The translations under genes and the position numbers were made by a program. From the IMG/VR virus record IMGVR_UViG_3300033121_002344, positions 3,888-67,887 of that record: 64,000 nt of DNA. The stretch is one strand, 5' to 3'. The stretch comes from a virus. Taxonomy: Duplodnaviria > Caudoviricetes. Below are positions 3,688 to 63,615 of this stretch, one piece after another. The notes beneath the pieces were generated by a model. That model was given only the letters and a program-made list of their open reading frames with translations, did no database searches and was not told where the DNA came from. The number at the start of each line of letters is the position of its first letter. Positions within the stretch are counted from its first letter, which is position 1.

Positions 3688-4131
3688 CTACGTGGTGATG
3701 ATCTTCGCGGTGTCGGCCGCGAAGCTGATGTCGACCGCCACGTACTCGTCCCGGCCGCCCGTCCCGAGCTTGATCGGGTCGAACTTGATATCGGGGATGA
3801 GGACGCGGGGCCGAGACCCGTTCGGGAAGTTGTAGGTGGCCGTGATGTTGATGACGCCCTGGCCCGCCGGCACCCTGCGCTGCGTCCGCTGCATCAGGAA
3901 GTCGATCAGCTTCAGGGCCTGGTCGCCCTCGGGGTGGAGGGTGAAGCTCCCGCTGACGCCGTCGAAGACGTCGTCGTGACGCTGCGTGCGCTCCCCAAGG
4001 TACCCCTCCTCCATCTTCTTGAACTGGAAGGTGACCTCGAGGTTCTTGATGGCCGTGATCTCGGCCAGGATGCGCCCGTCCTGGGCGAGTCGGACGGTGA
4101 CTTCTTGGCCGCGAAGGCGGAGCTCGCTCAT
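3688..4131 (-). CDS. Tail tube protein
   Basis: 147 aa, beta-rich (MSELRLRGQEVTVRL...), immediately after the sheath. Confidence 0.75.
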   Translation of the reverse strand: MSELRLRGQEVTVRLAQDGRILAEITAIKNLEVTFQFKKMEEGYLGERTQRHDDVFDGVSGSFTLHPEGDQALKLIDFLMQRTQRRVPAGQGVINITATYNFPNGSRPRVLIPDIKFDPIKLGTGGRDEYVAVDISFAADTAKIITT

Positions 4132-4180
4132 GGGCGGATCTTTGGCAGACCCGGGCCAGGCCGGCAAGACCTGGCCCTAA

Positions 4181-4192
4181 CAACCCGGGTTG
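4181..4192. repeat. Dispersed palindrome copy 1 (TAA-CAACCCGGGTTG-CTT)
   Basis: Exact 12-bp core, 1 nt past the sheath stop. Confidence 0.95.
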
Positions 4193-4193
4193 C

Positions 4194-12621: not shown

Positions 12622-12765
12622 CTACTTCTTCTTGGCCGCCTGGCAGGAGCCGTTGCAGGTCGGCAGGCCGCACTTCCCGCAGTACTTCGGCTCACCCGTG
12701 AGCCCCTTGTTCTTGCTCTCCGCGATGCCGCGCAGGGTGCGGGCGGGCTTCTCGACCGTGGCCAT
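12622..12765 (-). CDS. Small Cys-rich protein (47 aa, not in ORF track)
   Basis: GAGGAG SD; MATVEKPAR...YCGKCGLPTCNGSCQAAKKK. Confidence 0.6.
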   Translation of the reverse strand: MATVEKPARTLRGIAESKNKGLTGEPKYCGKCGLPTCNGSCQAAKKK

Positions 12766-12790
12766 CCTCGTGCTCCTCTCCGGGAAGGCC

Positions 12791-13372
12791 TCAGCCCTCC
12801 GTCTCGATCTCGTCTTCGTCTTCCGAGCGCTCGTCTTCGTCGTCCTCGTCGAGGAGGTCGTCCTCGCCCTCGGAACGAACCTGACCGATCGCCTTCGCGA
12901 CCGCCACCGCCCACTCGGGGTCGGTCGGGTCGGGATAGTTGGCCTCGCCGAGCGCGCTCGAAAGCTCGCCGTCGAGCTCCTCGCGCTGCGACTCCGTGAA
13001 CTCCTCGTAGTCGTCGAGGTTCCGCTGCTTGGCCTGCAGGAGCTCCTCGTGGGCGTGCTCCCGCATCTCCTCGTCGCCGGTCGTGATCGCCTCGGCGAGC
13101 TCCCGGATCGGATCTTCGAGCTCCGGCTCGTTCTCCTTCAGCCAGTCGAGCAGCTGCTGGGCCCGTTCCTCGTCGATCTCCCCGGACTCCTCGCCGGCCC
13201 AGATGGAGTCGTGGCCGTCGTCCCCGAGGTCGCCGGTGTCGTCGAGGTCGCCCGTCCCCTCATCGGAGCCGGGATCGTCGGCGGTCTTCGGCTTCCCGAT
13301 GCCGCCGAACCGGGGCGTTGCGTTGCCACGGGCGCTCGCCCACCCCTGGATCGTCTGCGCGTCGAGAGCCAC
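12791..13372 (-). CDS. Highly acidic head-module protein
   Basis: Very Asp/Glu-rich; start uncertain (GTG 13372; ORF open to 13408). Confidence 0.65.
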   Translation of the reverse strand: MALDAQTIQGWASARGNATPRFGGIGKPKTADDPGSDEGTGDLDDTGDLGDDGHDSIWAGEESGEIDEERAQQLLDWLKENEPELEDPIRELAEAITTGDEEMREHAHEELLQAKQRNLDDYEEFTESQREELDGELSSALGEANYPDPTDPEWAVAVAKAIGQVRSEGEDDLLDEDDEDERSEDEDEIETEG

Positions 13373-13424
13373 AGCGATCCCATAACCGTCCTGTGGGTGC
13401 TCCCACAAGAGGGGAGCGCGGAAA

Positions 13425-13436
13425 CAACCCGGGTTG
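13425..13436. repeat. Dispersed palindrome copy 3 (AAA-core-CTT)
   Basis: Exact core just past the stop at 13443. Confidence 0.95.
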
Positions 13437-13442
13437 CTTGGC

Positions 13443-13607
13443 TCAGAAGATCCACTTCCGACGCGCCCGAGCCTCGGGGCGCTGCGATTCGACGATGCGC
13501 TTCCGCGCCGCCTCGACCGCCTCTGGTGTCGCCGCCAGGACTCCGCGCTCGGCCGCGAAGGCCGCGATCTCCTCGGCGCTGTAGATCCGCACCTGGGTGG
13601 CGATCAT
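13443..13607 (-). CDS. Small hypothetical protein
   Basis: MIATQVRIYSAEEIAAF..., 54 aa. Confidence 0.5.
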   Translation of the reverse strand: MIATQVRIYSAEEIAAFAAERGVLAATPEAVEAARKRIVESQRPEARARRKWIF

Positions 13608-13644
13608 GTGCTGCCGAAGATCGCTCTCGGGTGTCCGGGCCGCA

Positions 13645-13866
13645 TTACCTCGTCGCCCCACCAGCCGCCTCCTTGCGGGCCTGCAGGGCCTCGAGTCGGG
13701 TCGCGGTCATCTTCGTGCGACCCGCAGAGTAGTCCGCGAGCTCGACCTCCACCTCCGCGTCGGTGAGGGCCGAGACCGGGCGCGCAGCCCCTCGACCGAT
13801 CGTGTTCCAGACGCGGTTGAGGACCGCTGCGTCCTCCTTGCTCTCCTCGGGTTCCCAGCTGGCCAT
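13645..13866 (-). CDS. Small hypothetical protein (candidate immunity partner of the MuF extension)
   Basis: 73 aa starting 4 nt after the MuF stop. Confidence 0.55.
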   Translation of the reverse strand: MASWEPEESKEDAAVLNRVWNTIGRGAARPVSALTDAEVEVELADYSAGRTKMTATRLEALQARKEAAGGATR

Positions 13867-13870
13867 GAGG

Positions 13871-15799
13871 CTATCGTCGCCCGTGCGGCTTCTTCGGGTC
13901 GATCCCCTTCTCGCGCAGGTAGGCGCTCAGGACCTTCCGCGACCGGCTGCCAGGGCTGAGGTCGAAGACGCCGTCGAAGCTGTCACCGTGGGTCTTCCAC
14001 CACGCCCGACCCTCCGCGGTCTGCATGAGCTCCGCGATGGACTCGCAGCCGGTCGCGCGCCGCTGCTCCGCGTCGAGGGGCGCGTCGTACCCGAGGCGCG
14101 CCCAGGTGTAGTAGCCGTTGTAGTTTCCCGAACGGAAGCAGAGCGCCTCGATCCGATCGACGCCGAGCGAAACCGCCGCTCGGATCTGAGAAGCGAACAA
14201 CCGAGTCCCACGCGACTGCCCTTGAGCTTCCTTCTCCACCTCCAAGAGGCCGTTCTTGAGAACCAGCTTTCCGTCGACCCGTACGAGATCACGAATCGCG
14301 TGCATGTGAGGAGCTTCGGCCGTGATCTTCACCCTCCCCATCGGCCCAACCTTCACCCGGACCTTCGCCCCCTCGAAGCCCGTCAGGGCCGCCACCTGGG
14401 CCGCCGAGACCGGCCGCCCCACCAGGGCCGTGGCCGCCTCGACCGCCGCCTGTGGGGCCTCCAGGGCCTCCTGCTCGGGCTCCACCGGCTCCTCCGCCCC
14501 GTCCTCGAAGGCGTCCTCGATCTCACCCTCAAGCTCGGCCTTGAGGTCCTCCATCTCGGCCTTGAGGTCCGCCCGGGCATCACCCGCCTCCTCCTCTTCC
14601 GCCTGGTCCTCCTCCTCGACTGCTTCCTGGTCCTCCTCCTCGACCTCGGGCTCCGCCGGCTCTTCGGCTGACTCCTCGGGCTCGATCGCCTCCCCAGGCT
14701 CCGGCAGGAAGGGCGCCGTCGCCGCCAATTCCTCGTCGGCCGCCTCGCCACCCGGCTCCTCGCCGTCCTGCTCGGCTTCGAGCTCCTCCCCCTCCTCGTC
14801 CTCGGGCCCGTGCTCGTAGGGCTGCCCGGGTTTGTGGCCCGGAGGGATCTCGACCCCGACGTCCTTGCGCCACCGGGTCGGCTCCGCCGCTTCGAGCTCC
14901 GTGAGGCTCAACGGCCGCGAGAGATCGTCCTCGGGCCAGCTGGGGTCCCAGGGCACCACGACCTCGCGATCGTTCGGCCGGTTCGGCGGATGCATGTAGC
15001 GCTGCAGGACCCAGCGCCCCCGGACCTTCCGCTTCCACTGGAAGGGTTGGTCGACCGGCACGGCCTGCCCGTGGACCAGGAAGCTGTCGTCGCCGGTCCG
15101 GTCGTCGAAGGTCGCGATCAGCTTCTTCCAGACCTTGCCGCCGAGCTCCTTCGCGGTCCGCTCGATCGCCTGGTGCTTCGCCGCCCCGTGAGCGTGCGCC
15201 ATCTCCGTCCGGACGATCCGCTCGGCCCGGTACCGCTCCTCCGGCCCGAGCCCATCGTCCCGCATCACCTCCTCGACCATGTCCTCTAGTGGCTTGCCGG
15301 TCATGGCCGCCACCGAGAGCCGGCCCTCGATGCGGCGGATCGCGTCGAGCCCCCAGATCTGGACCGAGCGCTTGTGGCGGTTCAGGACCGAGCGGTCGAC
15401 GCCGTTCACCAGCCCGCGGAACATCGCCCCTCGCTCGACGTCGAGGACCGGAGTCGTGCCCTTGAAGTGGGTCTCCAGCCGCCGCCATTCGTCGAGGCCG
15501 TGGCGAGCCCCCATCACGACGGCCTCGCTGCTGGCCTCGTTGAGGTGCTGCTCCAGCTTCCCGGAGAGCTTCGCCACCGCCGCGTCCGCCTGGGCGATCA
15601 TCGCCCGCAGGGTCGTAGGGCCGGCCTTCGTCGAGCCCTCGCCGGCCGCCCGAAGGCGCGCCGCAAGATCGCGCTGTGCATCCGCGTAGAGGGAGGCGAC
15701 GTCCGAGGTCCCTCGGGCATCGACCAGACGCTTCAGCTGGTTGAGGTGCGCCCCAAAGACCTTCTGGGCGACGTCGGGGACTCGCTTGGCTCGGGGCAC
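13871..15799 (-). CDS. MuF/SPP1 gp7-like minor head protein with a C-terminal GNAT-like domain
   Basis: RAERIVRTE...IATFDDRT...HPPNRPNDR (MuF); acidic linker; QGQSRGTRLF...NGYYTWARLGY (GNAT motifs A and B). Confidence 0.8.
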   Translation of the reverse strand: MPRAKRVPDVAQKVFGAHLNQLKRLVDARGTSDVASLYADAQRDLAARLRAAGEGSTKAGPTTLRAMIAQADAAVAKLSGKLEQHLNEASSEAVVMGARHGLDEWRRLETHFKGTTPVLDVERGAMFRGLVNGVDRSVLNRHKRSVQIWGLDAIRRIEGRLSVAAMTGKPLEDMVEEVMRDDGLGPEERYRAERIVRTEMAHAHGAAKHQAIERTAKELGGKVWKKLIATFDDRTGDDSFLVHGQAVPVDQPFQWKRKVRGRWVLQRYMHPPNRPNDREVVVPWDPSWPEDDLSRPLSLTELEAAEPTRWRKDVGVEIPPGHKPGQPYEHGPEDEEGEELEAEQDGEEPGGEAADEELAATAPFLPEPGEAIEPEESAEEPAEPEVEEEDQEAVEEEDQAEEEEAGDARADLKAEMEDLKAELEGEIEDAFEDGAEEPVEPEQEALEAPQAAVEAATALVGRPVSAAQVAALTGFEGAKVRVKVGPMGRVKITAEAPHMHAIRDLVRVDGKLVLKNGLLEVEKEAQGQSRGTRLFASQIRAAVSLGVDRIEALCFRSGNYNGYYTWARLGYDAPLDAEQRRATGCESIAELMQTAEGRAWWKTHGDSFDGVFDLSPGSRSRKVLSAYLREKGIDPKKPHGRR

Positions 15800-17470: not shown

Positions 17471-18096
17471 GGGAGGAGCGCCGCCGCCCGCGCCAAGAAG
17501 CTCGCCTCCGCCCGCTCGATGCTCTGCTCGACGATCCGCTCCGTCATCGGCGGGTACTTGAAGGTCCACTCCCGCTCGTGGGCCAGGAGGTCGCGCCGCT
17601 CGGTCGCCAGCAGGATGTCGTCCGCGTGCTTCACGAGCGGGTCGAAGGGGAAGACGAGCCCGAACCGCTGCGCGATCACCCGTTCGAGGGCGAGCTCCGC
17701 CGACTTGTAGTCGGGCATGGCCACCTTCAAGGGCCGGATCATGTCGCCCAGGTAGGCCTCGGCCGCGTCGTGGAAGAGCCCCTGGAGCGCCACCTGCTTC
17801 CACCGCGGAGGGTCGGTCAGCAGGGAGCGGGTCATCACCGACGACTGCGCGGCGAAGCACTCCTGCTCGACGACCTGGCTCACCAGCACCGAGTGCTGAG
17901 CGACCGAATAGAAGCCGCGCGTGTGGCCGCCGAAGCGGCAGATCCGAGCGAGCGCGTGGGCGATATCGGCGAGCTCGACGTCACGGACCTCGGGCGCCAT
18001 CGGGAAGAAGCGCCGGCCGGTGTGGGTCTGGAACCACTCGGCCTCGATCTGCTGGCCGTTGCGCTCGAAGAAGCGGGGCTTGTCGGGTTGGGTCAT
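17467..18096 (-). CDS. HD-domain phosphohydrolase (YfbR/YfdR-like 5'-deoxynucleotidase)
   Basis: DIAHALARICRFGGH...YSVAQHSVLV...FHDAAEAYLGD. Confidence 0.85.
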   Translation of the reverse strand: MTQPDKPRFFERNGQQIEAEWFQTHTGRRFFPMAPEVRDVELADIAHALARICRFGGHTRGFYSVAQHSVLVSQVVEQECFAAQSSVMTRSLLTDPPRWKQVALQGLFHDAAEAYLGDMIRPLKVAMPDYKSAELALERVIAQRFGLVFPFDPLVKHADDILLATERRDLLAHEREWTFKYPPMTERIVEQSIERAEASFLARAAALLP

Positions 18097-18103
18097 GGAG
18101 CGA

Positions 18104-18487
18104 TCATCGCCCGAAGGCGCGCTCCACCTCTTCCCAGACCGGCCGCATCGAACGGTCGTCGATGTAGCGATCGGCCACCGGCTTCCCTGGGCGGTCCCAG
18201 ACGAGGTCGAAGACGCCCCCGCTCGCCACCGTCCAGAGCCCGCAGCGCCGCAGGAACCGCTCCATCTCCTGCTGCTGAAGGTCCGCGTCGAGGAGGGAGG
18301 GCGTCAGCCGCGCCACCACCGTCTGGTCGGTGAGGTGGGTGGGCTGCGTGAGCCGGGTCGAGTGGAGGACGAGCGTGTGGCCGGCCGCCCGAAGCGCCCG
18401 AAGCGCATCCGCCGCCCCAGGCCTGAGCTCGAGTCCGTTGTCGCCTGCGCGCGCGATGGTGCCGTCGAAGTCGATCGCGAAGATCAC
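18104..18487 (-). CDS. Small HAD-family phosphatase
   Basis: FAIDFDGTI (motif I), HSTR, KPVADRYIDDR. Confidence 0.85.
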   Translation of the reverse strand: MIFAIDFDGTIARAGDNGLELRPGAADALRALRAAGHTLVLHSTRLTQPTHLTDQTVVARLTPSLLDADLQQQEMERFLRRCGLWTVASGGVFDLVWDRPGKPVADRYIDDRSMRPVWEEVERAFGR

Positions 18488-18494
18488 GAGCCGA

Positions 18495-20262: not shown

Positions 20263-20988
20263 TCAGCGGGGAAGGGTGAGCTTGGAGGCCCGAAGGATGC
20301 GCCGGCCCTGGCGCGAACCGAGGACCTGCCGACCCGACCGCTTCCCTCGCTCGCCATGCGTGTGCTCGGTCCACTGCTGGCCGTCCCAGGTCTGCCCGTA
20401 GCCGCCCGGCCGGATCTCGTAGGGGGCCCGCACGAGCCCCATGAAGTCGAACTTCGCCGCGGAGAGGTCGGTCGGGGGCTCGAAGTAGGGCGGAAGGACG
20501 AAGTTGGAGAGCTTCACCCCGAAGAGCGAGTAGCTGTCCTGCTCGACCGCGTCCCCGACCTCGTAGGCCCAGACCTTCCCATCGATCGGGCTCCAGGCGC
20601 AGCGGCAGAGGTTCGGATCGACGAGCGCCTCCAGGATCTCGTGCGAGGCCGTCGTCGACCACTCGACCCCGTCCTGCTGGTCGAGGAGAGGAAAGACCTT
20701 CATCAGCGGCAGGCCCGCCGGGGTCTCGTCGTGGTAGCCGAGCGCGCCGGGTTGGTCGGGGTCGCGGAAGAGACCCAGCTGCCATTCGTCGGCCGCCGGT
20801 GGGTGGTTCGCGTAGGCCGCCCGGATCGAGCAGCGCAGCCCGTAGCCGTGCGGCGGAGGGAGGCCGGCGTGCTCGTTCACCTGGCGTTCGAGCGCATGGG
20901 CGACGAGGGCGAGCCGGGTCCGGTCGGGGACGAGGTTGTCGTGATCGACGATCACGATCTTGGTGGGGGTGGGGATGGGTTGCGTCAT
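20263..20988 (-). CDS. Zincin-like protein (HExxE...DP)
   Basis: TASHEILEALVDP...EVGDAVE...SNFVLP. Confidence 0.55.
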   Translation of the reverse strand: MTQPIPTPTKIVIVDHDNLVPDRTRLALVAHALERQVNEHAGLPPPHGYGLRCSIRAAYANHPPAADEWQLGLFRDPDQPGALGYHDETPAGLPLMKVFPLLDQQDGVEWSTTASHEILEALVDPNLCRCAWSPIDGKVWAYEVGDAVEQDSYSLFGVKLSNFVLPPYFEPPTDLSAAKFDFMGLVRAPYEIRPGGYGQTWDGQQWTEHTHGERGKRSGRQVLGSRQGRRILRASKLTLPR

Positions 20989-21009
20989 GCCCCCTATCCT
21001 CGCAGCTAA

Positions 21010-39905: not shown

Positions 39906-39909
39906 GGGC

Positions 39910-48882: not shown

Positions 48883-49377
48883 CTAGCGCTCCTCCTGGAG
48901 GGCCCGGAACTCCTCCAGGACGCCTTCCGCCGTCAGCCCTCGGGGGAGGGCCTTCCGGGCGCGGAGCCACCGCTCGAAGGCCTCGCCGACCGGGAGCCGT
49001 TCCTCGAGCCCCGCCACGGCCTCCACGTTGCGCTCAGGCCGGCTCGGGACGATCGGCCGGACGTGGGTCGCCCCCGCGCGCCGAAGGGCCTGTTCGGCCT
49101 CGTGGGGCGCGAAGACCGAGGTCTCGGTCAGCTGGACCAGCACCCGGACGATCGCGCCGCCGACCGAGGCTCCGGACGCCCAGGCATCGTAGTCGGCCTG
49201 GCTGGCCAGCCGCGGGTCCACGAGCCGCAGGGTCAGGAGGTTCGCCGCCGGGAGAGGGTGGAAGTGGGGTAGCTCGATGGAGGGGGCCTCGGGAGCCAAG
49301 GGGGGAACTTGTGTAACGGGGGTATCCGTTCCCGAGGCCCCCTCCGTCGATTGAGATCTGCGTTTGCGCGCCGCCAT
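48883..49377 (-). CDS. Probable SbcD/gp47 C-terminal (capping) domain as a separate gene
   Basis: GAIVRVLV...QALRRAGATHVRPIV...VGEAFERWL; directly after a short SbcD. Confidence 0.5.
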   Translation of the reverse strand: MAARKRRSQSTEGASGTDTPVTQVPPLAPEAPSIELPHFHPLPAANLLTLRLVDPRLASQADYDAWASGASVGGAIVRVLVQLTETSVFAPHEAEQALRRAGATHVRPIVPSRPERNVEAVAGLEERLPVGEAFERWLRARKALPRGLTAEGVLEEFRALQEER

Positions 49378-49387
49378 GACCTGATCA

Positions 49388-50128
49388 TCACAGGTCGAGC
49401 AGCACGTAGCCCTTCGGCTCCATCTCCTCGCCGAAGTCGAGGCGGTCGAGCGACCCTACCACCTGCACCTTCTCCCGCACCACCTGAGGCTTGTGGACGT
49501 GGCCGGCGTAGATGCGCTGCACCCGCGGGTCCTCCTCCATCCAGCGAGGGAGCTCCAGGGCGCCGCCCCGCAGCATCCGCCCCTCCGAGCCCGTCGTCGC
49601 CCCGGGAATGTCGAGGTGGCAGAACACCACCACCTTCGCGTCCGCCGAGAGCTCCGCGAACGTCGATCGCAGGCTCGTCTCCAGCCACTCGACCGCGCTC
49701 AGCCGCCGGCCCTCGACCTCGGGCGCATGGGCGCCGCTCAGGTAGGGCAGGTAGAGGATCGTCTTGCTGCCGATGACCTCGGTCGCCGGGGTCTCGACCA
49801 CCCGCACCAGCAGGCCCGCCAACACCGAGACCGTCGCCCGCGCCCCCACCCCGTGGCTGGAGTCGTCGACCACGTCGTGGTTGCCGGCCAGCAGGACCGA
49901 CCGACACTCGATCCGCTCCAGGAAGCGCCGCGTGCTCGCCAGCGCCCGGATCGTCCGGTTCCCGCTGTCGGGGTCCGTGAGGTCCCCGAGGTGGAGGAAG
50001 AGGTCGACCTTCTCCTGGTCGATGATCCGCTCCAGCCGCGCCAGCTGGGCCTCGAAGGAGACCCAGCGCTCCACCCCCGACCGCGCCGTTTGGTCGAGGT
50101 GCCAGTCAGTGCTCACCAGCGTCTTCAC
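49388..50128 (-). CDS. sbcD: SbcD/Mre11-like metallophosphoesterase nuclease (catalytic domain only)
   Basis: STDWHL, HLGDL, AGNHD, FCH, GHVH, GSLDRLDFGE...KGY. Confidence 0.85.
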   Translation of the reverse strand: MKTLVSTDWHLDQTARSGVERWVSFEAQLARLERIIDQEKVDLFLHLGDLTDPDSGNRTIRALASTRRFLERIECRSVLLAGNHDVVDDSSHGVGARATVSVLAGLLVRVVETPATEVIGSKTILYLPYLSGAHAPEVEGRRLSAVEWLETSLRSTFAELSADAKVVVFCHLDIPGATTGSEGRMLRGGALELPRWMEEDPRVQRIYAGHVHKPQVVREKVQVVGSLDRLDFGEEMEPKGYVLLDL

Positions 50129-53100: not shown

Positions 53101-53718
53101 CTACTCGCGGTGCTGGATGCGATCGCGGAGCGGTGAGGCTCCGCCAGTGCTGGTGATGAGCGAGCGCAGATCCGAGAGCGAATCGGCGCGCCGCTTCCAG
53201 GCGTCTTCGAGCGACTCGAGGACGTGCGTGGCCGCCTGGAAGTCGCGGTACCGCCGCTCGCGCTCCCGGACCTCGTCCGGCCAGGTCGCGATCACGCGGT
53301 CCCGCACCATGTCGTTCGTGATCTGCTTGCTCTGGATCTCGCCCGACTTCTTGGCCTCGCTGAGGGCGAGGAGCGCGCCGTCCTTCTTCGCCTCCCACCA
53401 CGCCTCGTGGGAGATCTTGAAGAGCTCGTACTCGCGCCGAGCCCGCGCCGAGAGCTTCGCCGCCATGTAGCGCCGGCTCTGGGCGCTGTTGATCGCCTCG
53501 ATGAGCGCCGAGGCCGTCGCCGGATCGCGCTCCCGCAGCCCCTCTTCGAGCTCCCGGTGGACCTGCTCGATGTTGAGCTCGATGATCCCCGTGATGACCG
53601 GGGACCAATTCTCGTCCAGGACGTCCGCCTCCGCGGCGCTGATCGCCCGCCGGGAGGGCACCGATACACGACTTCGGACCGCCCTCACGGGCGGCTTCGC
53701 TTCTTCCTCTGTGGCCAT
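53101..53718 (-). CDS. UvsY-like recombination mediator
   Basis: All-helical; QITNDMVRDRV...LESLEDAWKRRADSL pattern; next to SSB and RecA. Confidence 0.5.
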   Translation of the reverse strand: MATEEEAKPPVRAVRSRVSVPSRRAISAAEADVLDENWSPVITGIIELNIEQVHRELEEGLRERDPATASALIEAINSAQSRRYMAAKLSARARREYELFKISHEAWWEAKKDGALLALSEAKKSGEIQSKQITNDMVRDRVIATWPDEVRERERRYRDFQAATHVLESLEDAWKRRADSLSDLRSLITSTGGASPLRDRIQHRE

Positions 53719-53739
53719 GCTCGTATCATCGCCGCTGCC

Positions 53740-56283
53740 TCACGCATCCCAGGAGACGCCGAGCGAACGCAGCGCCGTCGCGAACCGCACGTCCTCCCGC
53801 GGATGCCGGACCTTCAACCCCGGGACCACGAGCTCGTAGACGCGGCGCTCCTCAGAGGCCCGCACATCGACCCGCAGGTGATGGCTGCCCGGGAAGGCCC
53901 CCAGGAGCTCGCGCAGCGCCGCCGCCTCCGACCAGCTGTCCTCGACCCGCAGCACCAGCCGGTTCGCCGGCTGACGGACCACCCGCCTCGGCTCGCCCCC
54001 GAAGAGGTCGCCCTGTCGCGGGTCCTGCTGGCGCGGCAACACGCACTCGAGCTCCGGCCAGCCCGCCCCCGGGAAGGCCGCCTCCAAGACCCGCTGGGTC
54101 GGCGGGTAGACGTGGTCGTTCCAGTAGAGCGGGAAGCTGACCTGCCCTGCGAGAGGCCCGAGCTCCGTGGGGTGCAGGGCCCCCTTGTCGGTCATCAGGA
54201 ACGGGATCTTCTGCCCCTCGTCGACCTCGACCCCGCGCTCCACCATCCGCGCCGCCACCTCGACGTGGTGGGGCTTGTTGGCGTAGTCGCCCAGCGCCTT
54301 CGTGATCGTCTTGCTGAGCGTCAGGTCTTCGTTCGGCACCCCGCCCGCGAGCAGCGCCTGCCGGCGGTCCTCCACCACCGAGCGGATCTCCTCCGAGGTC
54401 GCGCCCCCGAGCACCAGGTCCACCACCTCGCGCTGCAGGCTGCGCGCCGCTCGACAGACGTCGGACCGCACAATCTCGAGCCCCCGCACGTCCGCCGGGA
54501 TGTTCTCGCCCGCGACCTTGCCCTTGTAGACGGCGAACTTCCCCGCGTACTTCTTCGAGGCCGTCACCAGCACGACCCCAAAGCGCTTCTCGTACCCGAT
54601 CGAGATCTCGCCGGGCTTCGCCCCGTGGGTGGCGACGAGCTCCGGCACCATCTTCTGGTTGACCTCGTCCTGGACGGCCTTCGCGTCCTCGTCGGTTCCC
54701 GTGAAGGCCACCGAGTCCGTGTCGCCGAAGATCAGCCGGTGGCCTCGCCGGCTCACGATGCCGATCGTGTTGGCGAGCAGCATCCGCCCCACCGAGGTCA
54801 CGCTCTCGCCGATCGCCGAGTGGTAGAAGCGTGACCCCTGGGAGAGCACGATCCCGTAGAAGGCGTTGATGACGGCCTTGCAGCCGTCGCTCAGCTGCCC
54901 GAGCTCCGCGTGCTTCGCGGACCCCACCTCCTCCTTGGCCTGCGCGTCCGAGTAGCGCTTGCGCAGCCGGATCAGGTCGAGGAGGGCCGCCGGGATGTGG
55001 CCCTCGGGGTTCGAGCGGAATCGCGCCAGGATCTTGCCGGTCGGCTTGCCCCGCTCGTCGGTGAGCGGGACCGCGATATCGCCCGAGGGGTCCGGGGTCT
55101 CGGGCGAGAGGTTGAAGGCGCGGATGATCGACGGGTACATCCGCGAGTAGTCCAAGACCGCCACCGACCGGTGGAGCCCCACCACCGCCTCGGGGACGAA
55201 GGCACCGCGCGCCTTCGCCCCATCACGCTCGACGTCGCGATAGCGGGTCGGGAAGTGGAAGCCGACCTCGAAGCCCCGCTGCAGCATCTTCCCGTCGATG
55301 AGGGTCGAGGGGTAGAGGGAGTCGCGCCCGGGGAAGATGCGGCAGATCGCGCAGACCGCCAGGTGGAGCCGCACGAAGCCGGTCTTCGCCTCGATCCCCA
55401 CCATCAGGTCGACGTCCTGGTCATTGTACTCGCGCGAGAGCTCTGGGGCGTGCTCCCAGGCCCACTCGATGGCCGCCGCCGCGCCCTCGACCTGCGCCCC
55501 CAGGGCCCGCGCCCGCGCCTCGATCGGCACCTTCCGCTCCCCGAGCAGCGCCTCCCCGATGGCTTCGAGGGCGAAGCTGGAGGTGGTGCCGCCGTCCTTG
55601 CCCCGGAGAAAGTACTTCTTGAAGCACCGGAGGTGGTCGAGCCAGAAGGTCTCCTCGGCGTCGAACGAGACCCCGAGGATCTCGCAGCGCCGTCGGATCA
55701 CCTGCTCATCGAACCGAGCCCCGTTCCAAGCGATCGCGATATCGTGCCTGGCCAGCAGCCGGACCAGCGTCTCCAAGAGGACCCGCTCGGCCGCGTCCGT
55801 CTTCGCCGCGAGGCGCGCGTGGCCCCGCTTCCCCTCCGAGCTCCGCCACGAGAAGGAGAGGATCCGCTCCTGGCCGCCCGGGTCGTCCCACGACCGGATC
55901 CGCTCGGTCTCCAGGTCGTAGTAGAAGAGCCGCCAGTCCTGGGCGATCTGGATCGACGGGCGCTCGATGACGAACCGCCGCACCGGGTCAATGTCGGCCT
56001 CCAGCGGCGAGATCCGACGCGGGACGAAGACCTCGCGTTGGAAGTGGACCAGCCGCCCCTCGCGGTTCCCGTTCGCCCGGATGGGCTCCGGCCACTCGAC
56101 GAACCGGTAGGCCGCGTGCGGGCCCTCGGTGACCATCCGATGCCAGCTGCGGGGTAGGAGATCGACCTCGCGCACGGGCAGGTAGAAGCCATCGCGCGCA
56201 CCCGTCTCGAAGACGCCCCCGGAGCCGCGGAGGAAGATGCGCCCGCGGTCGAAGCGCGCGTGCCTGAGAACGTCCTTCGTCAC
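53740..56283 (-). CDS. Family B DNA polymerase with 3'-5' exonuclease
   Basis: YDLET, AWNGARFD, YNDQD; LDYSRMYPSII, KAVINAFYG, FGDTDS; start re-called to GTG 56283. Confidence 0.95.
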   Translation of the reverse strand: MTKDVLRHARFDRGRIFLRGSGGVFETGARDGFYLPVREVDLLPRSWHRMVTEGPHAAYRFVEWPEPIRANGNREGRLVHFQREVFVPRRISPLEADIDPVRRFVIERPSIQIAQDWRLFYYDLETERIRSWDDPGGQERILSFSWRSSEGKRGHARLAAKTDAAERVLLETLVRLLARHDIAIAWNGARFDEQVIRRRCEILGVSFDAEETFWLDHLRCFKKYFLRGKDGGTTSSFALEAIGEALLGERKVPIEARARALGAQVEGAAAAIEWAWEHAPELSREYNDQDVDLMVGIEAKTGFVRLHLAVCAICRIFPGRDSLYPSTLIDGKMLQRGFEVGFHFPTRYRDVERDGAKARGAFVPEAVVGLHRSVAVLDYSRMYPSIIRAFNLSPETPDPSGDIAVPLTDERGKPTGKILARFRSNPEGHIPAALLDLIRLRKRYSDAQAKEEVGSAKHAELGQLSDGCKAVINAFYGIVLSQGSRFYHSAIGESVTSVGRMLLANTIGIVSRRGHRLIFGDTDSVAFTGTDEDAKAVQDEVNQKMVPELVATHGAKPGEISIGYEKRFGVVLVTASKKYAGKFAVYKGKVAGENIPADVRGLEIVRSDVCRAARSLQREVVDLVLGGATSEEIRSVVEDRRQALLAGGVPNEDLTLSKTITKALGDYANKPHHVEVAARMVERGVEVDEGQKIPFLMTDKGALHPTELGPLAGQVSFPLYWNDHVYPPTQRVLEAAFPGAGWPELECVLPRQQDPRQGDLFGGEPRRVVRQPANRLVLRVEDSWSEAAALRELLGAFPGSHHLRVDVRASEERRVYELVVPGLKVRHPREDVRFATALRSLGVSWDA

Positions 56284-56436
56284 AGGCCGATCTTCACAGG
56301 GCCAGCGTCCATGGGTCCAGACGCGCGAAGGGGTCGGGAGGAGCGTCGCCACTCCTCCCGACCCCAACCCGACAACCAGGGAACCTCAGGCGAGCCCCAT
56401 CTTCGCCCAGCGCAGCGACGCCGGGCAAGGGCCAAT

Positions 56437-56450: not shown

Positions 56451-57479
56451 TCAGTCGACCTTCTGCTTCGGGCAGTGGATCTTGAAGCCCTCGCCGCGGG
56501 GCAGGACCTCGACCACGAACTTCGCGTCGCCGATCCGGAAGCGACCCTGGCCCGCGCCGCGGTCCCAGTTGGTCCACTTGCCCTCGAAGACCACCGTCCC
56601 CATGTCCAGCGTGGCCTTGACCACCACCTTGTTCTCGTGACCGCGCCGCTCGGGGCGCTCGCGCTCGGAGACCTTCTCGCCGTTCGCCTTCTTGGCCGCG
56701 AAGTCGGCCTTGCGCTGCTCGTGGACCTTGTTGGCGAGGGCCGCCTTTGAGGGCTTCTCGACCTTCGCCTCCTCGGTCAGCTTCGCGCGGATCTCCGGGT
56801 CGGGGATCTTCGCCAGCAGCTTGAGGTGGCTGATCGTCAGCCCGGCGATCGACTTCTCGTCCGGGTAGGCGCGCGCCACCCGGATGAAGTCGACCCCGGC
56901 CGTCCGCGAGAAGCCGCACTGCTTCTCCACGTAGTCGGCGAAGCTGTCGAACTTGCCGGCCCAGAGGTTCTTGTCGTGGATCTCCAGGAGCCGCCGGCCG
57001 ATCTCCCAGCCGTTCTTCGCGAGGTTGTCGCGGAGCGACCGGACCTCGGTGGTGAGGGCAGCGAGGCGCGCCGCCACCTCGCCGGGGTTCGTGGTCGGCT
57101 CGACCTTCCCCTTGTCCGCCCCCGCCCCGACGTCGATCACCGGACCGCCGTCCGTCCCGACCACCGCCAGCTTCGCCGCCGCACCCTTGGCCTTCTTCTC
57201 GGCCTTCGCGCTCTTGGCCGCCGCCTGCTCCGCCAATTCCTCGTCGTCGAACTCGAACTTCGCCGCGCAGCCCGGGCAGTGGGTGAGGTCCTTGGTACCC
57301 GGGGACGGGAAGCCGCAGACCGTGCATTCGAGGACCTCGTCGTTCGGGTAGAGGCCGGCCAGCTTCGCCGCCAGGCTCGTGGCGAGCTCGGTCGGGGTCC
57401 ATCCGCCTTCGGCCGGAACCTTGTGCTTCTTGGCGACCTTCTGCAGGTGTTCGGGGTTGAGCTTGGTAGCGGTCAGCAT
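56451..57479 (-). CDS. Zn-ribbon plus DUF3102-like helical DNA-binding protein
   Basis: CTVC...CPGC; WEIGRRLLEIHDKNLW...SFADYVEKQCGFSRTAG. Confidence 0.6.
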   Translation of the reverse strand: MLTATKLNPEHLQKVAKKHKVPAEGGWTPTELATSLAAKLAGLYPNDEVLECTVCGFPSPGTKDLTHCPGCAAKFEFDDEELAEQAAAKSAKAEKKAKGAAAKLAVVGTDGGPVIDVGAGADKGKVEPTTNPGEVAARLAALTTEVRSLRDNLAKNGWEIGRRLLEIHDKNLWAGKFDSFADYVEKQCGFSRTAGVDFIRVARAYPDEKSIAGLTISHLKLLAKIPDPEIRAKLTEEAKVEKPSKAALANKVHEQRKADFAAKKANGEKVSERERPERRGHENKVVVKATLDMGTVVFEGKWTNWDRGAGQGRFRIGDAKFVVEVLPRGEGFKIHCPKQKVD

Positions 57480-58138
57480 GACGTCGTCTCCTCCAGGATC
57501 GGGTTGATGAATGCGAGGTTGATCAGGGTCGAGTCCTTCGAGGGCACCCGCTCACCCCCGATCATCGCGAGAAAGATCGTGTACTGCCGGGGCCCGAGGG
57601 CCGCCCGGGCGCGGTCGATCAGGAGCCGGAGCTCGGCCGCGTGCTCCTGGGTCGGCTCGCAGGCCAGCGCCAGCTGCAGCCCCGCCGGCTCGTGCGGGTC
57701 CTCGTGCTCGGGAAGCTCGTCGAGGAGGACCGGCATGTCGCCGTGGAACCGCTCGCGCCGCACGTACCGGTAGACCTCGTGGTCCATCGCGCGCCCCACC
57801 TTCCGGTGGACGTACTCCAGGAGGTCGAAGCGGGGCCGGGGCGCGCGCCCCTTCTCCAGGAGCTCGGGGTGCTGGCGCGCCACATGGGCCTCGTAGGCCT
57901 CCTCCGTGCGCGCCCCCCGCCGACACCCCGGGCAGCGGAGATGGTAGCTCTGGACCGCCTCCCAGGCCGCCAGGAGGCCCAGCTGTTCGAGGTCCTGGAG
58001 CTCCAGCGGTAGCCGAGCCCATGAAGCGCGCCCGTAGAAGAACCGCGCCATCCGTTGAAAGTAGCGGCTCTGCTCGGCCGCGAACTTGGTGAAGCTGATC
58101 TCGCCCGCCCGTAGGCGGGTCACGTCCTGCAGGTTCAA
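57473..58138 (-). CDS. Sigma70-family factor: region 2 with an inserted C2H2 zinc finger, truncated region 4
   Basis: QDLEQLGLLAAWEAVQSY / FDLLEYVHRKVGRAMDHEVYR; CPGC-x12-H-x4-H insert; TTG start with GGGAGG SD. Confidence 0.7.
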   Translation of the reverse strand: MNLQDVTRLRAGEISFTKFAAEQSRYFQRMARFFYGRASWARLPLELQDLEQLGLLAAWEAVQSYHLRCPGCRRGARTEEAYEAHVARQHPELLEKGRAPRPRFDLLEYVHRKVGRAMDHEVYRYVRRERFHGDMPVLLDELPEHEDPHEPAGLQLALACEPTQEHAAELRLLIDRARAALGPRQYTIFLAMIGGERVPSKDSTLINLAFINPILEETTSC

Positions 58139-59793: not shown

Positions 59794-59823
59794 ACAATTA
59801 AAGCGTGACCCGCGCGCTGTCAA
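59794..59823 (-). promoter_or_regulatory. Host-type promoter (TTGACA-16-TTAATTGT)
   Basis: Consensus -35; same -10 block as the accessory-region copies. Confidence 0.75.
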
Positions 59824-60308
59824 CCCGCTTTCTTCTCCTTCTTCGCTTCTTCGACGACCCACCCCGAAGACTTGAATTGGCCGTGGGTGTACCGCTCGAT
59901 CCGAGCCGCGAGGGCCAGGCTCGGCAGCATCGTCCCGGCCGCCAGTCGGTTGAGGGTCGAGACCGAGGTCTCCAGAGCCTCGGCCACATCCGTCTTCGAC
60001 CGGCCGTCCAGCCACCGCGCGAAGGGGTGCTCGGGGTTCGTCTGCGGCCGACCCGGGGACCGCTCGATCCCCAGCTTCCCCAGCGCCGAGCCCTCGATCT
60101 GCCGCGCCCGCTCCCGGGTGACCGGGGGGACGAGGGCCCTGGCGACTTCGTCGAGGGTCCGCTGCTCCTTCCCCAGGAAGCGCTGCTGGAGCACTTCGAG
60201 CTCCCGGTCGGAGAGCTCCAGGACCTTCTTCGGGCTCTTGAGGGCCCGCTCGACCTGGGTTCGGACGTCAGCCCGCGAGGGGCGCTGGTTCTTCTTCGAA
60301 TTACGCAT
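59820..60308 (-). CDS. Two-domain regulator: RpoD-like sigma region 4 plus Xre/Cro HTH
   Basis: LSDRELEVLQQRF...RTLDEVARALVPPVTRERARQIEGSALGKL; SKTDVAEALETSVSTLNRLAAGTMLPSL. Confidence 0.8.
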   Translation of the reverse strand: MRNSKKNQRPSRADVRTQVERALKSPKKVLELSDRELEVLQQRFLGKEQRTLDEVARALVPPVTRERARQIEGSALGKLGIERSPGRPQTNPEHPFARWLDGRSKTDVAEALETSVSTLNRLAAGTMLPSLALAARIERYTHGQFKSSGWVVEEAKKEKKAG

Positions 60309-60337: not shown

Positions 60338-61366
60338 CTATACCTTTCCGCCCCATTTACGCAACCGAGCCGGCTCCAAGCCGGTCGAATACCGGGCCGG
60401 TGGGGCCTCGTCGATCAGCCCCCTGACCCGCTCCGGGTCGTGGTCGGGTTGGAGGCCGTCGGGCAGCTGGACCGACCGCACCAGGTGTCCGAACCGGAGG
60501 GAGCTCGCCTGGTAGACGAACTTCCGTCCCGCCCCGTCGCCGTCCGGGCAGAGCACGATCTCGCGCCAGGGCTCCAGCAGCTGCGTGCGCTCCTCCGACC
60601 AGGCCGACCCGCAGGCCGCCACCACGTTGCGCTCACCGGCCTTCCGGAGCGCCACCGCGCCCCAGATGCCCTCGACCACCACCACCCGCGGGAACGTGGG
60701 GTCGAGCTCGTCGTAGCCCCACAGGGAGAGCTCCTTCCGAGCCCCCGCGTCCCGCCGGCCCGAGAGCGCCTTCGGGGACCGCGGGTCTCGCGCCTCGTAG
60801 AGGCGCGCCACGAAGTCGACCATTTCGTCCCGCACCACCACCGGGATGATCAGCCGGCTCCCGTAGCTGACCACCTCCGGGCGCCGCTCAGGCGCCGTCG
60901 CGAAGATCCCGAACCGCTCCACGTCGCCCAGGCCGATCCCACGGCCGCTCAAGTAGCGCAGGGCCGGTGACCGGTCGAATCCGTCGATCGCCCGCCACAG
61001 CGGCACGCTGCCCCGCGGGAAGCGAAGCTGGGGGGCCTGGTCGAGCGCCACCTTCGACCGCCACCCGCTGGAGCGCGCCGAGCGAGGCATCCGCAGCCCG
61101 GCGAACCCAGCGAGCCACTCCCGGGCCGCCGCCCGGTCGAGACCCCTGACCACCGCCACGAGGTCGATCGGCCCGCCCCCGAACCCGCACCCGTAGCAGA
61201 CGTGGAGGCCCGCCTTCGGGCCGGTGGGGCAGATCTGCCAGGAGCCCGGGCCTGGCCGGCCCGAGTGCTGATGGGCCGGGTCCGGGCAAGGTCCGCGAAG
61301 CTCCGAGCCCGAGCGCCGGGCCACGACCCCGAGCTCCGCGAGCAGCTTCGCGACGTCGACCCTCAC
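60338..61366 (-). CDS. DnaG-like primase (Zn-binding plus TOPRIM)
   Basis: CPDPAH...CYGC, YLSGRGI, VVVEGIWG, CPDGDGAG. Confidence 0.9.
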   Translation of the reverse strand: MRVDVAKLLAELGVVARRSGSELRGPCPDPAHQHSGRPGPGSWQICPTGPKAGLHVCYGCGFGGGPIDLVAVVRGLDRAAAREWLAGFAGLRMPRSARSSGWRSKVALDQAPQLRFPRGSVPLWRAIDGFDRSPALRYLSGRGIGLGDVERFGIFATAPERRPEVVSYGSRLIIPVVVRDEMVDFVARLYEARDPRSPKALSGRRDAGARKELSLWGYDELDPTFPRVVVVEGIWGAVALRKAGERNVVAACGSAWSEERTQLLEPWREIVLCPDGDGAGRKFVYQASSLRFGHLVRSVQLPDGLQPDHDPERVRGLIDEAPPARYSTGLEPARLRKWGGKV

Positions 61367-62163
61367 TCGCTTCGTTCCTCGCCGAGCGCGAGGACGCCCT
61401 GGCTAAGCCGCCGCGCCGCCGCCTCGCAGAACCGCTCGTCGATCTCGATCCCGACCGCGCGCCGCCTCATCTCCCGCGCCGCCACCAAGGTCGAGCCCGC
61501 GCCCATCGTCGGGTCGAGGATCAGCCCTCCGACCGGGCACGAGTACGAGATCAGCGGACGCAGGATCCCGAGAGGCTTCTGGGTGGGGTGGTCCGCCGAG
61601 CCGTGGCAGTTTCGCGCGTAGACGACGGACCGCATGAGCCGCGGACCTCCATCGCGCGACACGTAGGCGCTGTCCCCGATGTTGCCGGTGTGGGTGGGGC
61701 GCGTCTTCCGGCGCACGGTCCGGGCCGTCGCATCGGCGGTCGTCACCGGGGCCTTGTAGACGTCCTCCCAGCGAGCCGTCGACCGGTAGAGGTGGAGCGC
61801 GTGCTCGTGGACGCGACGGAACCGGTCGGTGTGGAAGCCGCTTCCGTTCTGCTTCTCCCAGACGAGGTCCTGCGAGACCCTCCAGCCGAGCGCCGCGATC
61901 TGATCGGCCTGCGCCATGAACATCCGCAGCGAGCCGAAGCACCAAACGGAGCCCGCGTCCCGCACGGTGGGGCCGGCCGCACGAAGCCACGACAGGTCGC
62001 GCTCGTCCCAGGCGAGGGACGTGTCCCCGTAGGGCGGGTCGGCGAGAAGCAGATCGACGCTTCCGCCCGCGACCGGAGCGGCGAGGGACATCCAGTCGGC
62101 GAGGACGTCCCGGCAATCGCCGAGGTAGATCGTGATGCCGCCGTGCTCGTAGTAGGGCTTCAT
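61363..62163 (-). CDS. Orphan N4/N6 DNA methyltransferase
   Basis: GDCRDVL, LADPPY, HPTQKP, LDPTMGAGST; start re-called to ATG 62163. Confidence 0.9.
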   Translation of the reverse strand: MKPYYEHGGITIYLGDCRDVLADWMSLAAPVAGGSVDLLLADPPYGDTSLAWDERDLSWLRAAGPTVRDAGSVWCFGSLRMFMAQADQIAALGWRVSQDLVWEKQNGSGFHTDRFRRVHEHALHLYRSTARWEDVYKAPVTTADATARTVRRKTRPTHTGNIGDSAYVSRDGGPRLMRSVVYARNCHGSADHPTQKPLGILRPLISYSCPVGGLILDPTMGAGSTLVAAREMRRRAVGIEIDERFCEAAARRLSQGVLALGEERSE

Positions 62164-63551
62164 TCGGTCGGCCCGTCCTCGCGCTCGAAGATGCTCAGGT
62201 CCACCGCCGCCTCGTTGTCGATCAGGTACTTCGCGCCCTCGAAGTCGTAGCGGACGCAGAAGGGGAAGGGCCCACGGCGCTGCTTCAGGCAGTAGAGGTC
62301 GAGGGTGTCGCGCATGTTCCGCCGCCGGCTCTTCGGGGCGCGGATCATCGGCCGGTCGACGCCGAAGATCAGGTCGAGCTCCTCCTCGAAGGCCCCCGCG
62401 TTCTTGATGTGCTCCAGCGACGGAGGCCCCTCGACGCCCTGGCGGTTGAGGTGGTGGACCAGGCAGATATGGACCCCGTAGCGCTTCGCGATCGACTCGC
62501 GGATGCGGATCAGCGCCTGGGTGACGGCCTGCTCGCGTCGATCGCGGAGCGCCTTCCCGACGACGTCGAAGACGAAGAAGCCGAAGCCCTCCTGGGAGAG
62601 GGCCGCCACCACGCTCTCGACGTGGTCGAGGTTCCGTTCGTTCTGGTCGGCCCACTTGTCGGTCGACTGCTCCAGGTGAATAAACGGGTTCTCTTCGATG
62701 ACGAAGCAGTCGTTGCGGAAGAGCTCGGCCGCGTCTGCGATCCGCAGCTTCTCCTGATCGGAGAGGTGCTTGGTGTGCTTTGTGTACCGCTCCGCCGGGA
62801 TCCCCGCCTCGGCCGCGATCATCGAATCGAGGTAGTCGTCACGCCCCATCTCCCAGGCCCCCAGGTAGGTCCGCTTCGAGTTGCGAACCCGCCAGCGGAC
62901 GAGGTGGGAGACGAAGGCGCTCTTGCCCATGCCGGGCCGGCCGACGATCAGGCTCACCGTGGCCGGCGCGAAGCCCGCGCCCAGCATCGAGTCGAGGATC
63001 ACGTTCCCGCTCGGCTCGAAGACGGAGCCGACGATCGACCGCATCCGCATCGTCTCGTAGTAGGCGTCGACGACCGCACCACCCCGCTGGATGTTCCGGA
63101 GGGCGTTGCGGCCGACTCGATCGCCGGCCACCCGCAGCGCACCCGCGAGCGCATCACCGGGCACCTTCGGGTCCTCGCAGAGCTCGACGAGCTTCGGTAC
63201 GTGGTCCCGGAGGAGCTCGAACTTCGCCGCGTCGAGCCGCAGTCGGTCGAGGTGGTAGTCGACGTTCCGGTTCGGCTGGTACTCGGCCTCGATGGCCCGC
63301 AAGTACGCAAACCCGCCGAAGTCCGCGCCGCCGACGAGCGTCTGGAAGGTGTCCTCGCTCCAGGCCATGCCGGCGCGGTCGAGGGCCGTGAGGCCGCGCA
63401 GGATGATCCGGTGGCGCTGGTCGCCGAAGTCGTTGGGCCGGATCGAGACCATGAGCCGCCGCCGCTCCTTGGCGTCGTGGATCATCGTCGCCAGCACGAC
63501 CCGCTCGTTCGCGAGGTCGAACTCCACCACCCTGCCACCGCGGTCCGCCAC
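62160..63551 (-). CDS. DnaB-like replicative helicase
   Basis: ERVVLATMI N-domain, GRPGMGKS, HHLNR, IKNAGAFEEELD; start re-called to GTG 63551. Confidence 0.9.
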   Translation of the reverse strand: MADRGGRVVEFDLANERVVLATMIHDAKERRRLMVSIRPNDFGDQRHRIILRGLTALDRAGMAWSEDTFQTLVGGADFGGFAYLRAIEAEYQPNRNVDYHLDRLRLDAAKFELLRDHVPKLVELCEDPKVPGDALAGALRVAGDRVGRNALRNIQRGGAVVDAYYETMRMRSIVGSVFEPSGNVILDSMLGAGFAPATVSLIVGRPGMGKSAFVSHLVRWRVRNSKRTYLGAWEMGRDDYLDSMIAAEAGIPAERYTKHTKHLSDQEKLRIADAAELFRNDCFVIEENPFIHLEQSTDKWADQNERNLDHVESVVAALSQEGFGFFVFDVVGKALRDRREQAVTQALIRIRESIAKRYGVHICLVHHLNRQGVEGPPSLEHIKNAGAFEEELDLIFGVDRPMIRAPKSRRRNMRDTLDLYCLKQRRGPFPFCVRYDFEGAKYLIDNEAAVDLSIFEREDGPTE

Positions 63552-63615
63552 GGGCTGATCTTCGCGCAACGGGCCTCGTCCCGACAGCAGGAGGCCCGTC
63601 GGGCCAGCTGCCGTA

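Follow-up and report, generated by a model that had tools for sequence, protein, structure and literature searches.

A start-adjacent GYGANGAT box before genes lacking a Shine-Dalgarno sequence in a GC-rich tailed-phage genome: a probable leaderless promoter class and a candidate phage sigma factor

The stretch of DNA analyzed here (hereafter referred to as the window) comprises 64,000 nucleotides (nt), bases 3888-67887 of the 67.9-kb IMG/VR virus record IMGVR_UViG_3300033121_002344 (G000), and is considered for a short element, G-Y-GA-N-GAT (hereafter referred to as the box), that adjoins 21 start codons lacking a Shine-Dalgarno (SD) sequence. The window has a GC content of 70%, and every gene lies on the minus strand. 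About 100 genes were called by a codon-usage score, with the long open reading frames (ORFs) as the training set. The identifiable products are a DnaB-like helicase, a DNA methylase, a primase, a protein with a sigma4 domain and a helix-turn-helix (HTH) motif (59820-60308), a UvrD-like helicase, a family B DNA polymerase (PolB), a UvsX-like recombinase, an SbcD-like nuclease, and ParB-like and ParB-methylase proteins; most of the remaining genes, including most of those associated with the box, had no family match in Pfam. No similar cultured phage was found in a phage collection searched by megablast and tblastn: 20 kb of the window gave no megablast match, and tblastn searches with PolB, MuF and the sigma-like protein described below gave remote matches or none. 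Neither the sigma-like protein nor its alignments gave a match in viral, metagenome or genome contigs, and PolB gave none in metagenome contigs; the sole match of the ParB-methylase in genome contigs (37%, in a Flavobacterium metagenome-assembled genome) was uninformative about the host. The related records reached were IMGVR_UViG_3300014205_000200 (G002) and IMGVR_UViG_3300009514_000013 (G001) only.

The box, its spacer and the adjoining start codon were found at the following sites, all on the minus strand:

63549-63565, minus strand: GCGAAGAT + 6 nt + GTG; start 63551 of the DnaB-like helicase
56281-56297, minus strand: GTGAAGAT + 6 nt + GTG; start 56283 of the family B DNA polymerase, upstream gene ending 167 nt away
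53716-53732, minus strand: GCGATGAT + 6 nt + ATG; start 53718, also boxed in the G002 orthologue (start 19835)
49375-49391, minus strand: GTGATGAT + 6 nt + ATG; start 49377, upstream stop TGA at -13..-11
45688-45704, minus strand: GCGAAGAT + 6 nt + GTG; start 45690
43502-43518, minus strand: GCGATGAT + 6 nt + ATG; start 43504, upstream stop TGA at -10..-8
43133-43151, minus strand: GTGAAGAT + 5 nt + TTG or + 8 nt + ATG; starts 43138/43135
40264-40281, minus strand: GTGACGAT + 7 nt + ATG; start 40266, intergenic, 54 nt past a copy of the palindrome described below
39903-39919, minus strand: GCGACGAT + 6 nt + ATG; start 39905, upstream stop TAG at -7..-5
39356-39372, minus strand: GTGAAGAT + 6 nt + ATG; start 39358
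37748-37764, minus strand: GCGATGAT + 6 nt + ATG; start 37750, overlapping the upstream stop by 4 nt
35757-35773, minus strand: GCGATGAT + 6 nt + ATG; start 35759
34370-34386, minus strand: GTGAAGAT + 6 nt + ATG; ATG 34372, in frame and internal to ORF 34480-34067
34043-34059, minus strand: GTGATGAT + 6 nt + ATG; start 34045
32873-32889, minus strand: GTGATGAT + 6 nt + ATG; start 32875 of a gap-filling ORF of 115 amino acids
29915-29932, minus strand: GCGATGAT + 7 nt + ATG; start 29917, upstream gene ending 168 nt away
27840-27856, minus strand: GCGATGAT + 6 nt + ATG; start 27842
20986-21003, minus strand: GCGAGGAT + 7 nt + ATG; start 20988, 20 nt past a palindrome copy
18485-18501, minus strand: GGGATGAT + 6 nt + GTG; start 18487
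18094-18110, minus strand: GCGATGAT + 6 nt + ATG; start 18096 of a YfbR-like protein
13864-13880, minus strand: GCGACGAT + 6 nt + ATG; start 13866, lowest matrix score (12.5)

The start-adjacent box is a real feature of this genome. The minus-strand sites listed in an earlier account of the same letters (hereafter referred to as the sequence-only reading) were all present as described, 21 of them solid; the spacer at 13866, given there as 7 nt, is in fact 6 nt, and the AAAGAT reported at 4131 is present, but is a weak variant falling below the threshold of the weight matrix introduced below. From GAT to the start codon, 17 of the 21 sites have a spacer of 6 nt and three (40266, 29917 and 20988) one of 7 nt, while that at 43138/43135 is 5 or 8 nt. 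The starts that the box selects for DnaB and PolB, proposed on that basis in the sequence-only reading, proved to be colinear with the N-termini of the orthologues in two relatives. In ORF 34067-34480 (minus strand), the alternative start, ATG 34480, is SD-led and overlaps the upstream stop codon, and the Phage_zn_bind_8 domain is encoded downstream of either start; ATG 34372 marks either the real beginning of the gene or the site of a promoter within it. One further candidate, at 24571, was rejected, as this box-like sequence is accompanied by an ordinary SD and has the ATG inside the box.

The frequency of the box next to start codons greatly exceeds that in all the controls. GANGAT occurs 121 times on the coding strand and is followed by ATG or GTG exactly 6 nt later in 18 cases, whereas GANGAT-N6-[AG]TG was obtained 1.4±1.2 times in dinucleotide shuffles (maximum 5, n=200) and three times on the other strand, and offsets other than 6 nt gave one to seven cases. 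Likewise, the full motif has 16 occurrences, versus 0.06 in shuffles and none on the other strand. Among the 100 called starts, GANGAT is found at spacer 6 in 15 and at spacer 7 in four (0.18 expected). An 11-nt weight matrix gave 30 matches on the coding strand and two on the other; 21 of the 30 are start-adjacent, and the remaining nine are intragenic, all in the one frame that avoids stops and rare codons.

The logo of the 21 sites has six invariant positions (G-14, G-12, A-11, G-9, A-8 and T-7, each 21/21), a pyrimidine at -13 and a variable position at -10, at which T is more frequent than A, and A more frequent than C. Further downstream, C or A is present at -6, G at -5 and at -4 (17/21 each) and C at -1 (18/21), and the A or G of the start codon follows. 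No -35 element was detected, with at most 0.43 bit of information everywhere from -52 to -15, as against 1.3-2.4 bits at the invariant positions; this bears out the claim of the sequence-only reading that the sites share no -35, as there is no information upstream of -14. No terminators or other structures accompany the boxes, a point in favor of a promoter, and a scan of the 26-46 kb region for terminator and promoter consensus sequences identified no sigma70 consensus site and no coding-strand terminator.

The genes with a box lack an SD sequence, as had been reported: their median anti-SD pairing energy (-3.2 kcal/mol) is no better than that of random positions (-3.8 kcal/mol), the value for SD genes being -10 kcal/mol, and one of 20 box starts reaches -7.5 kcal/mol. 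Pairing of TGATC with the GAUCA of the 16S rRNA, which the sequence-only reading had raised as an alternative function, found no support, with a median of -8.2 kcal/mol versus -7.1 kcal/mol for random positions (p = 0.098) and -12.1 kcal/mol for SD genes, as computed with a generic 3' tail that may not be that of the host. This result bears on the main rival to a promoter, according to which the box is a translational start-associated signal acting at the RNA level on polycistronic transcripts and recognized by the ribosome, the 16S 3' tail or a phage protein, as proposed for the SAS element of Cluster K mycobacteriophages. The box does occupy the position of a ribosome-binding site in SD-less genes, but the generic 16S tail pairs with it no better than with random positions, the invariant A-11 would be a mismatch in such pairing, and seven of the 21 boxes lack GATC, reading GATA instead, with the G002 box reading GATG. 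Half of the boxes lie close behind an upstream stop codon, and the single orientation, the concentration in non-structural genes, the bias toward ATG and the GATAGG present in six of the 21 boxes are all shared with SAS. Spacing can be cited on both sides: it varies from 6 to 8 nt in G002, whereas in the window it is fixed and far tighter than the SD spacing of the same genome, where values of 3 to 14 nt are found. A translational signal, which we consider distinctly unlikely, is also opposed by the conserved C-1 and by the equal distance from hexamer to start at bona fide -35/-10 promoters (see below).

A different explanation treats the motif as a by-product, arising from stop codons (TGA/TAG) and from the codon usage where genes meet, or else from a termination-reinitiation arrangement. 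The sequence-only reading had stated that about half of the boxes overlap the upstream stop, and this is the case for 10 of the 21, with TGA at -13..-11 or -10..-8, or TAG at -7..-5, all embedded stops being in one register (TGA TGA TAG), the only one that the box allows. However, in nine of the other 11 boxes the upstream stop precedes the box, lying 21 to 168 nt before the start, and the upstream reading frame runs through the boxes at 37750 and 34372. Because nine boxes follow the stop and two lie in an open upstream frame, the enrichment survives the control for stop-codon overlap that the sequence-only reading had called for, 11 of the 21 boxes being free of such overlap. The invariant bases, including G-14, G-12, A-11, G-9 and A-8, are retained whether or not they form part of a stop, and sites such as GCGAAGATCAG hold no stop. 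Sites free of stop overlap largely refute the by-product reading, which we regard as highly improbable.

Two other kinds of promoter, neither of them in doubt, are present in the window. The first consists of six near-identical sigma70-type promoters, each with a -35 element (TTGACA, TTGACT or TTGCGT) followed, after about 17 bp, by a -10 element reading TTAATTG (or CTAATTG):

59795-59801, minus strand: sigma70-type promoter
31989-31995, minus strand: sigma70-type promoter
29034-29040, minus strand: sigma70-type promoter
27022-27028, minus strand: sigma70-type promoter
25541-25547, minus strand: sigma70-type promoter
23885-23891, minus strand: sigma70-type promoter

Five of the six adjoin SD-less starts (31981, 29026, 27014, 25534 and 23876), the gene called at 25543 more likely starting at ATG 25534, and the sixth (59801) is upstream of the helicase and sigma genes. 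These six elements are probably early promoters read by the host polymerase. The second kind is a canonical TANNNT (TAGGCT, TAGCCT, TAGGGT or TAGAGT) located 6-7 nt before the SD-less starts 22408, 15799, 2965 and 1268 (minus strand), all belonging to late or structural genes; this TANNNT-N6-7-start arrangement is the classical leaderless architecture. A hexamer with A-11 and T-7 is found at spacer 6 before 24 of the 100 starts, versus two expected; the arrangement is generic in this phage and extends to both of these promoter kinds. The identical hexamer-to-start distance at the -35/-10 promoters, together with the conserved C-1, points to a signal at the DNA level.

The reading that we favor, with moderate confidence, is that the box constitutes a -10-only, phage-specific promoter class giving rise to leaderless or near-leaderless mRNAs, probably read by a phage sigma factor. 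The positions read by sigma70-family proteins include the flipped-out A-11 and T-7, the extended -10 G-14, a GG discriminator and a pyrimidine at -1 followed by a purine at +1. The promoter proposed in the sequence-only reading is supported indirectly: A-11, T-7, G-14, the fixed distance and the lack of a -35 match a sigma70-family -10 element, and the undoubted promoters of this phage and of a relative have the same geometry, although, as stated in that reading, G takes the place of T at -12. We infer promoter activity, the transcription start site and the identity of the sigma factor concerned, as follows. The holoenzyme would bind G-14, G-12, A-11, G-9, A-8 and T-7, the DNA would melt from A-11, and the first transcribed base, 7-8 nt downstream of the T, would be the purine with which the ATG or GTG begins after C-1. 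The transcript would have no leader, or one of 1-2 nt, and would be translated by the leaderless pathway, which would explain the missing SD at the box genes. The strict G-12, together with the missing -35, suggests that specificity is conferred by a dedicated factor, most likely the sigma-like protein encoded by the phage:

57473-58138, minus strand: candidate box reader, a sigma70-family protein of 221 amino acids, with a strong SD and a TTG start

An exhaustive search identified 38 relatives of this protein, of which 26 had E-values lower than 1e-10. When 24 relatives were aligned, conservation was seen at the C-x2-C...H-x4-H residues and in region-2-like blocks, and family models detected Sigma70_r2 in 15 of the 24 homologues and a C2H2 zinc finger in 12. 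The finger (C69, C72, H85 and H90, all invariant) is inserted between regions 2.2 and 2.3. The family has at least 26 metagenomic and viral members, all of about 170-245 amino acids, and other homologues are encoded on long Logan contigs (P0008, 57.6 kb; P0017, 88 kb; P0022, 83 kb; P0012; and P0013). An AlphaFold model of the protein (pLDDT 84.5) was aligned with VIA-align to the sigma2 domains of sigma28, SigB, SigE and ShbA, with Z scores of 8-9 and root-mean-square deviations of about 3 Å over 78-91 residues. Every top neighbor of the model in Foldseek and Atlas was a sigma factor, the E-values of Foldseek against the PDB being weak. The C-terminal 58 residues form four short helices (pLDDT 50-85) of uncertain sigma3-like or sigma4-like identity, and Sigma70_r4 was not among the 25 families listed of the 38 matched for the 24 homologues. 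Judging from the model and the alignment, the protein is a member of the sigma70 family, with a sigma2 domain into which a C2H2 zinc finger is inserted.

The sequence-only reading had proposed the 57473 protein as the reader of the box. Its sigma2 nature and the co-occurrence of a homologue with a box in G002 agree with this proposal, and the link appears plausible, so that the zinc-finger sigma may be named, tentatively, as the reader. Its gene is downstream of the sigma70-type promoter at 59801, an arrangement that fits an early-to-middle cascade, in which a host-type promoter would drive the sigma gene and the sigma would then serve the box. The 59820-60308 gene (minus strand) encodes a protein of 162 amino acids with Sigma70_r4 followed by an Xre-type HTH_3 domain, for which a role together with the sigma had also been considered. 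No counterpart of this protein was detected in G001 or G002, and its proposed role is weakened, as G002 retains the sigma homologue and a box without a Sigma70_r4 match; a partnership with the 59820 protein is therefore not conserved. As an obligatory partner it was rejected, on the basis of this lack of a Sigma70_r4 match in G002, a record that is only 78% complete.

G002 (89 kb, 66.7% GC, 78% complete) shares 38 colinear genes with this phage, with 27-65% identity, and encodes a homologue of the sigma-like protein. It has a box of its own, GGGAAGAT (GG-GAAGAT-(G)GG), before 19 starts: the coding strand has 19 copies of GGAAGAT-N6-8-ATG/GTG and the other strand one, versus 0.47±0.74 in shuffles. 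G-14 is present in 19/19 sites, although it was not part of the search pattern, and -12 is G in 19/19. The boxes of G002 are located among its non-structural genes, with ATG as the start codon in 16 of 19 cases. A box is retained by the orthologues of window gene 53718 and PolB, at 12 nt in the case of PolB. G002 also has four identical sigma70-type promoters of the form TATGCT-N6-ATG and about 10 TANNNT-N6-8 starts in structural genes. G001 (84 kb, 47% GC, 36 shared genes) is equally syntenic, but lacks, around its positions 12700-14400, the UvrD-like helicase and sigma-like genes between primase and PolB, and also the sigma4-HTH gene; no sigma homologue and no box were found in it, its ribosome-binding sites are AGGAG, and there is no leaderless design at all. 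G001 keeps the gene order and differs in GC content and in the use of ribosome-binding sites; the syntenic lineage therefore spans hosts that differ greatly in GC content and expression style. Sigma and box are thus both present in G000, both present in G002 and both absent from G001, a phyletic pattern that fits a sigma-box pair, as far as these sequences indicate. It is possible, and we suggest it with some reserve, that in this lineage a sigma factor with a C2H2 finger in region 2 reads, with the host core enzyme, a private one-piece promoter, that about 20 middle genes are expressed as leaderless messages, and that box and sigma coevolve (GYGANGAT here, GGGAAGAT in G002).

The same observations can be set against another source of specificity, in which a host primary or alternative sigma factor, perhaps remodeled by the phage, would read a leaderless promoter box and the phage sigma-like protein would be uninvolved. 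In high-GC bacteria, primary sigma factors commonly use promoters consisting of a -10 element alone, with G-14. The same genomes contain TANNNT and -35/-10 promoters of the host type with this geometry, and nothing physically ties the 57473 protein to the box; nevertheless, the two classes are discrete, with -12 always G in the box and always T in TANNNT, and G-9 and A-8 are invariant in the box class only. The presence of box and sigma homologue together in G002, and the absence of both from G001, likewise argue against reading by a host sigma, which we consider rather unlikely.

Several observations weigh against the box as a leaderless promoter served by a phage sigma. T at -12, a defining base of canonical -10 elements, is found in 0/21 boxes (G in 21/21). 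Ten boxes are 4-10 nt past the upstream stop, in tightly packed strings of genes, where a separate promoter for each gene would seem wasteful and reinitiation of translation can be envisaged. The nine good matrix matches within genes are not followed by a start codon. The boxes of G002 are less strictly spaced (6-8 nt), and their G-rich flanks result in moderate anti-SD pairing energies. The correlation between sigma and box concerns three genomes only and is confounded by host, as G001 has a GC content of 47%. Finally, the 57473 protein itself has no Pfam or PHROG match, being below the Pfam detection level.

In Deinococcota and Actinobacteria, a TANNNT motif 6-7 bp before the ORF marks leaderless genes (PMC12340547, PMC3160421); in D. 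radiodurans, this motif has been validated as the -10 region of promoters (PMC12340547). The box resembles this motif in having A as the second and T as the last base of its hexamer, in its position 6-7 bp before SD-less ATG or GTG codons and in needing no -35 element, and canonical copies of TANNNT are present in this phage and in G002. It differs from TANNNT in that its first base is always G rather than T, G-14, G-9 and A-8 are also fixed, and the element occurs in a single phage lineage only, where a host primary sigma is probably not its reader. Among phage systems, the T4 late promoter, TATAAATA, is read with gp55. Middle and late single-element promoters of phiEco32 are read by a phage sigma, gp36 (PMC8948821). 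As in these two systems, which are likened to the present one by design and not by homology, a divergent sigma70-family protein of the phage would be combined with a one-piece -10-type promoter lacking a -35, and a host-type early promoter class lies upstream of the sigma gene. Unlike them, the box has a different sequence and its promoters adjoin start codons, which predicts leaderless mRNAs, and the 57473 sigma carries a C2H2 zinc finger and has no known clamp or co-activator.

The SAS of Cluster K mycobacteriophages (GGGATAGGAGCCC, a 13-bp consensus) is present in 11-19 copies per genome, in one orientation and at non-structural genes, a few bp before starts that are mostly ATG, with the upstream stop sometimes inside it; its function is unproven (PMC3203893). 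The box is similarly oriented in one direction, lies a few bp before starts in non-structural genes and sometimes contains the upstream stop. In contrast, SAS has an SD core, AGGAG, a variable spacing of 3-7 bp and is mostly located in intergenic gaps of more than 50 bp (PMC3203893). The box has no AGGAG core and has a fixed 6-nt spacer, with only GATAGG in common, in 6/21 boxes. Sevostyanova (2007) and Berdygulova (2011) reportedly found leaderless middle and late transcripts in the Thermus phages phiYS40 and P23-45. The promoters of phiYS40 and P23-45 are read by a host sigmaA holoenzyme modified by the phage, with the canonical T at -12 and without a phage sigma. Middle and late P23-45 promoters fall into the extended -10 class (PMC7403470). 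The likeness to these phages lies in promoters without a -35, in leaderless messages (predicted in the present case) and in a host competent for leaderless translation; the difference is that the box has G at -12 and a candidate phage sigma. The 57473 sigma is set apart from known sigma factors by its zinc-finger insert, and the box from a canonical -10 element by its failure at T-12.

If the favored promoter reading is correct, an 8-bp promoter fused to the start codon and a sigma of 221 amino acids would form a compact, sequence-defined module for transcription and translation, and the leaderless design with a -10 element at the ORF would be extended from host genomes to a promoter class private to a phage. 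The annotation of gene starts in such phages would also be improved, as the starts of many ORFans, like those of DnaB and PolB, are indicated by the box. A family of zinc-finger sigmas (at least 26 metagenomic members) is not known to have been described before, and the strict G-12 would be a case of altered -10 recognition.

A box with the full matrix score of 18.1, GCGATGATCGG (57559-57568, minus strand), falls inside the sigma gene, at its 3' end, and is not followed by a start codon; the SD-led gene 57479 lies about 75 nt further downstream. This box could serve as an internal promoter, or could be a coding match that arose by chance.

A perfect 12-mer palindrome, CAACCCGGGTTG, is present in 13 copies in the window and 14 in the genome, with none expected:

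4181, 12379, 13425, 21010, 28289, 31070, 36530, 40322, 44752, 47819, 56437, 59750 and 63617: palindrome copies in the window

Its usual flanks are AAG-...-(A/T)T(A/T) and its usual place is at gene ends. A pattern scan of other viral contigs gave no exact copy of the extended 17-mer, AAGCAACCCGGGTTGWT. Five copies of the palindrome lie 20-150 nt upstream of a box, one of these boxes being the weak AAAGAT at 4131, and the palindrome may be an operator or a boundary of transcription units.

Dam-type methylation of GATC was considered as the purpose of the box and rejected, given the seven boxes of 21 without GATC and the GATG of the G002 box. GATC is itself in excess in both genomes, by a factor of about 3.3-3.6 (617 versus 186 expected in G000, and 982 versus 274 in G002), and both encode DNA methylases.

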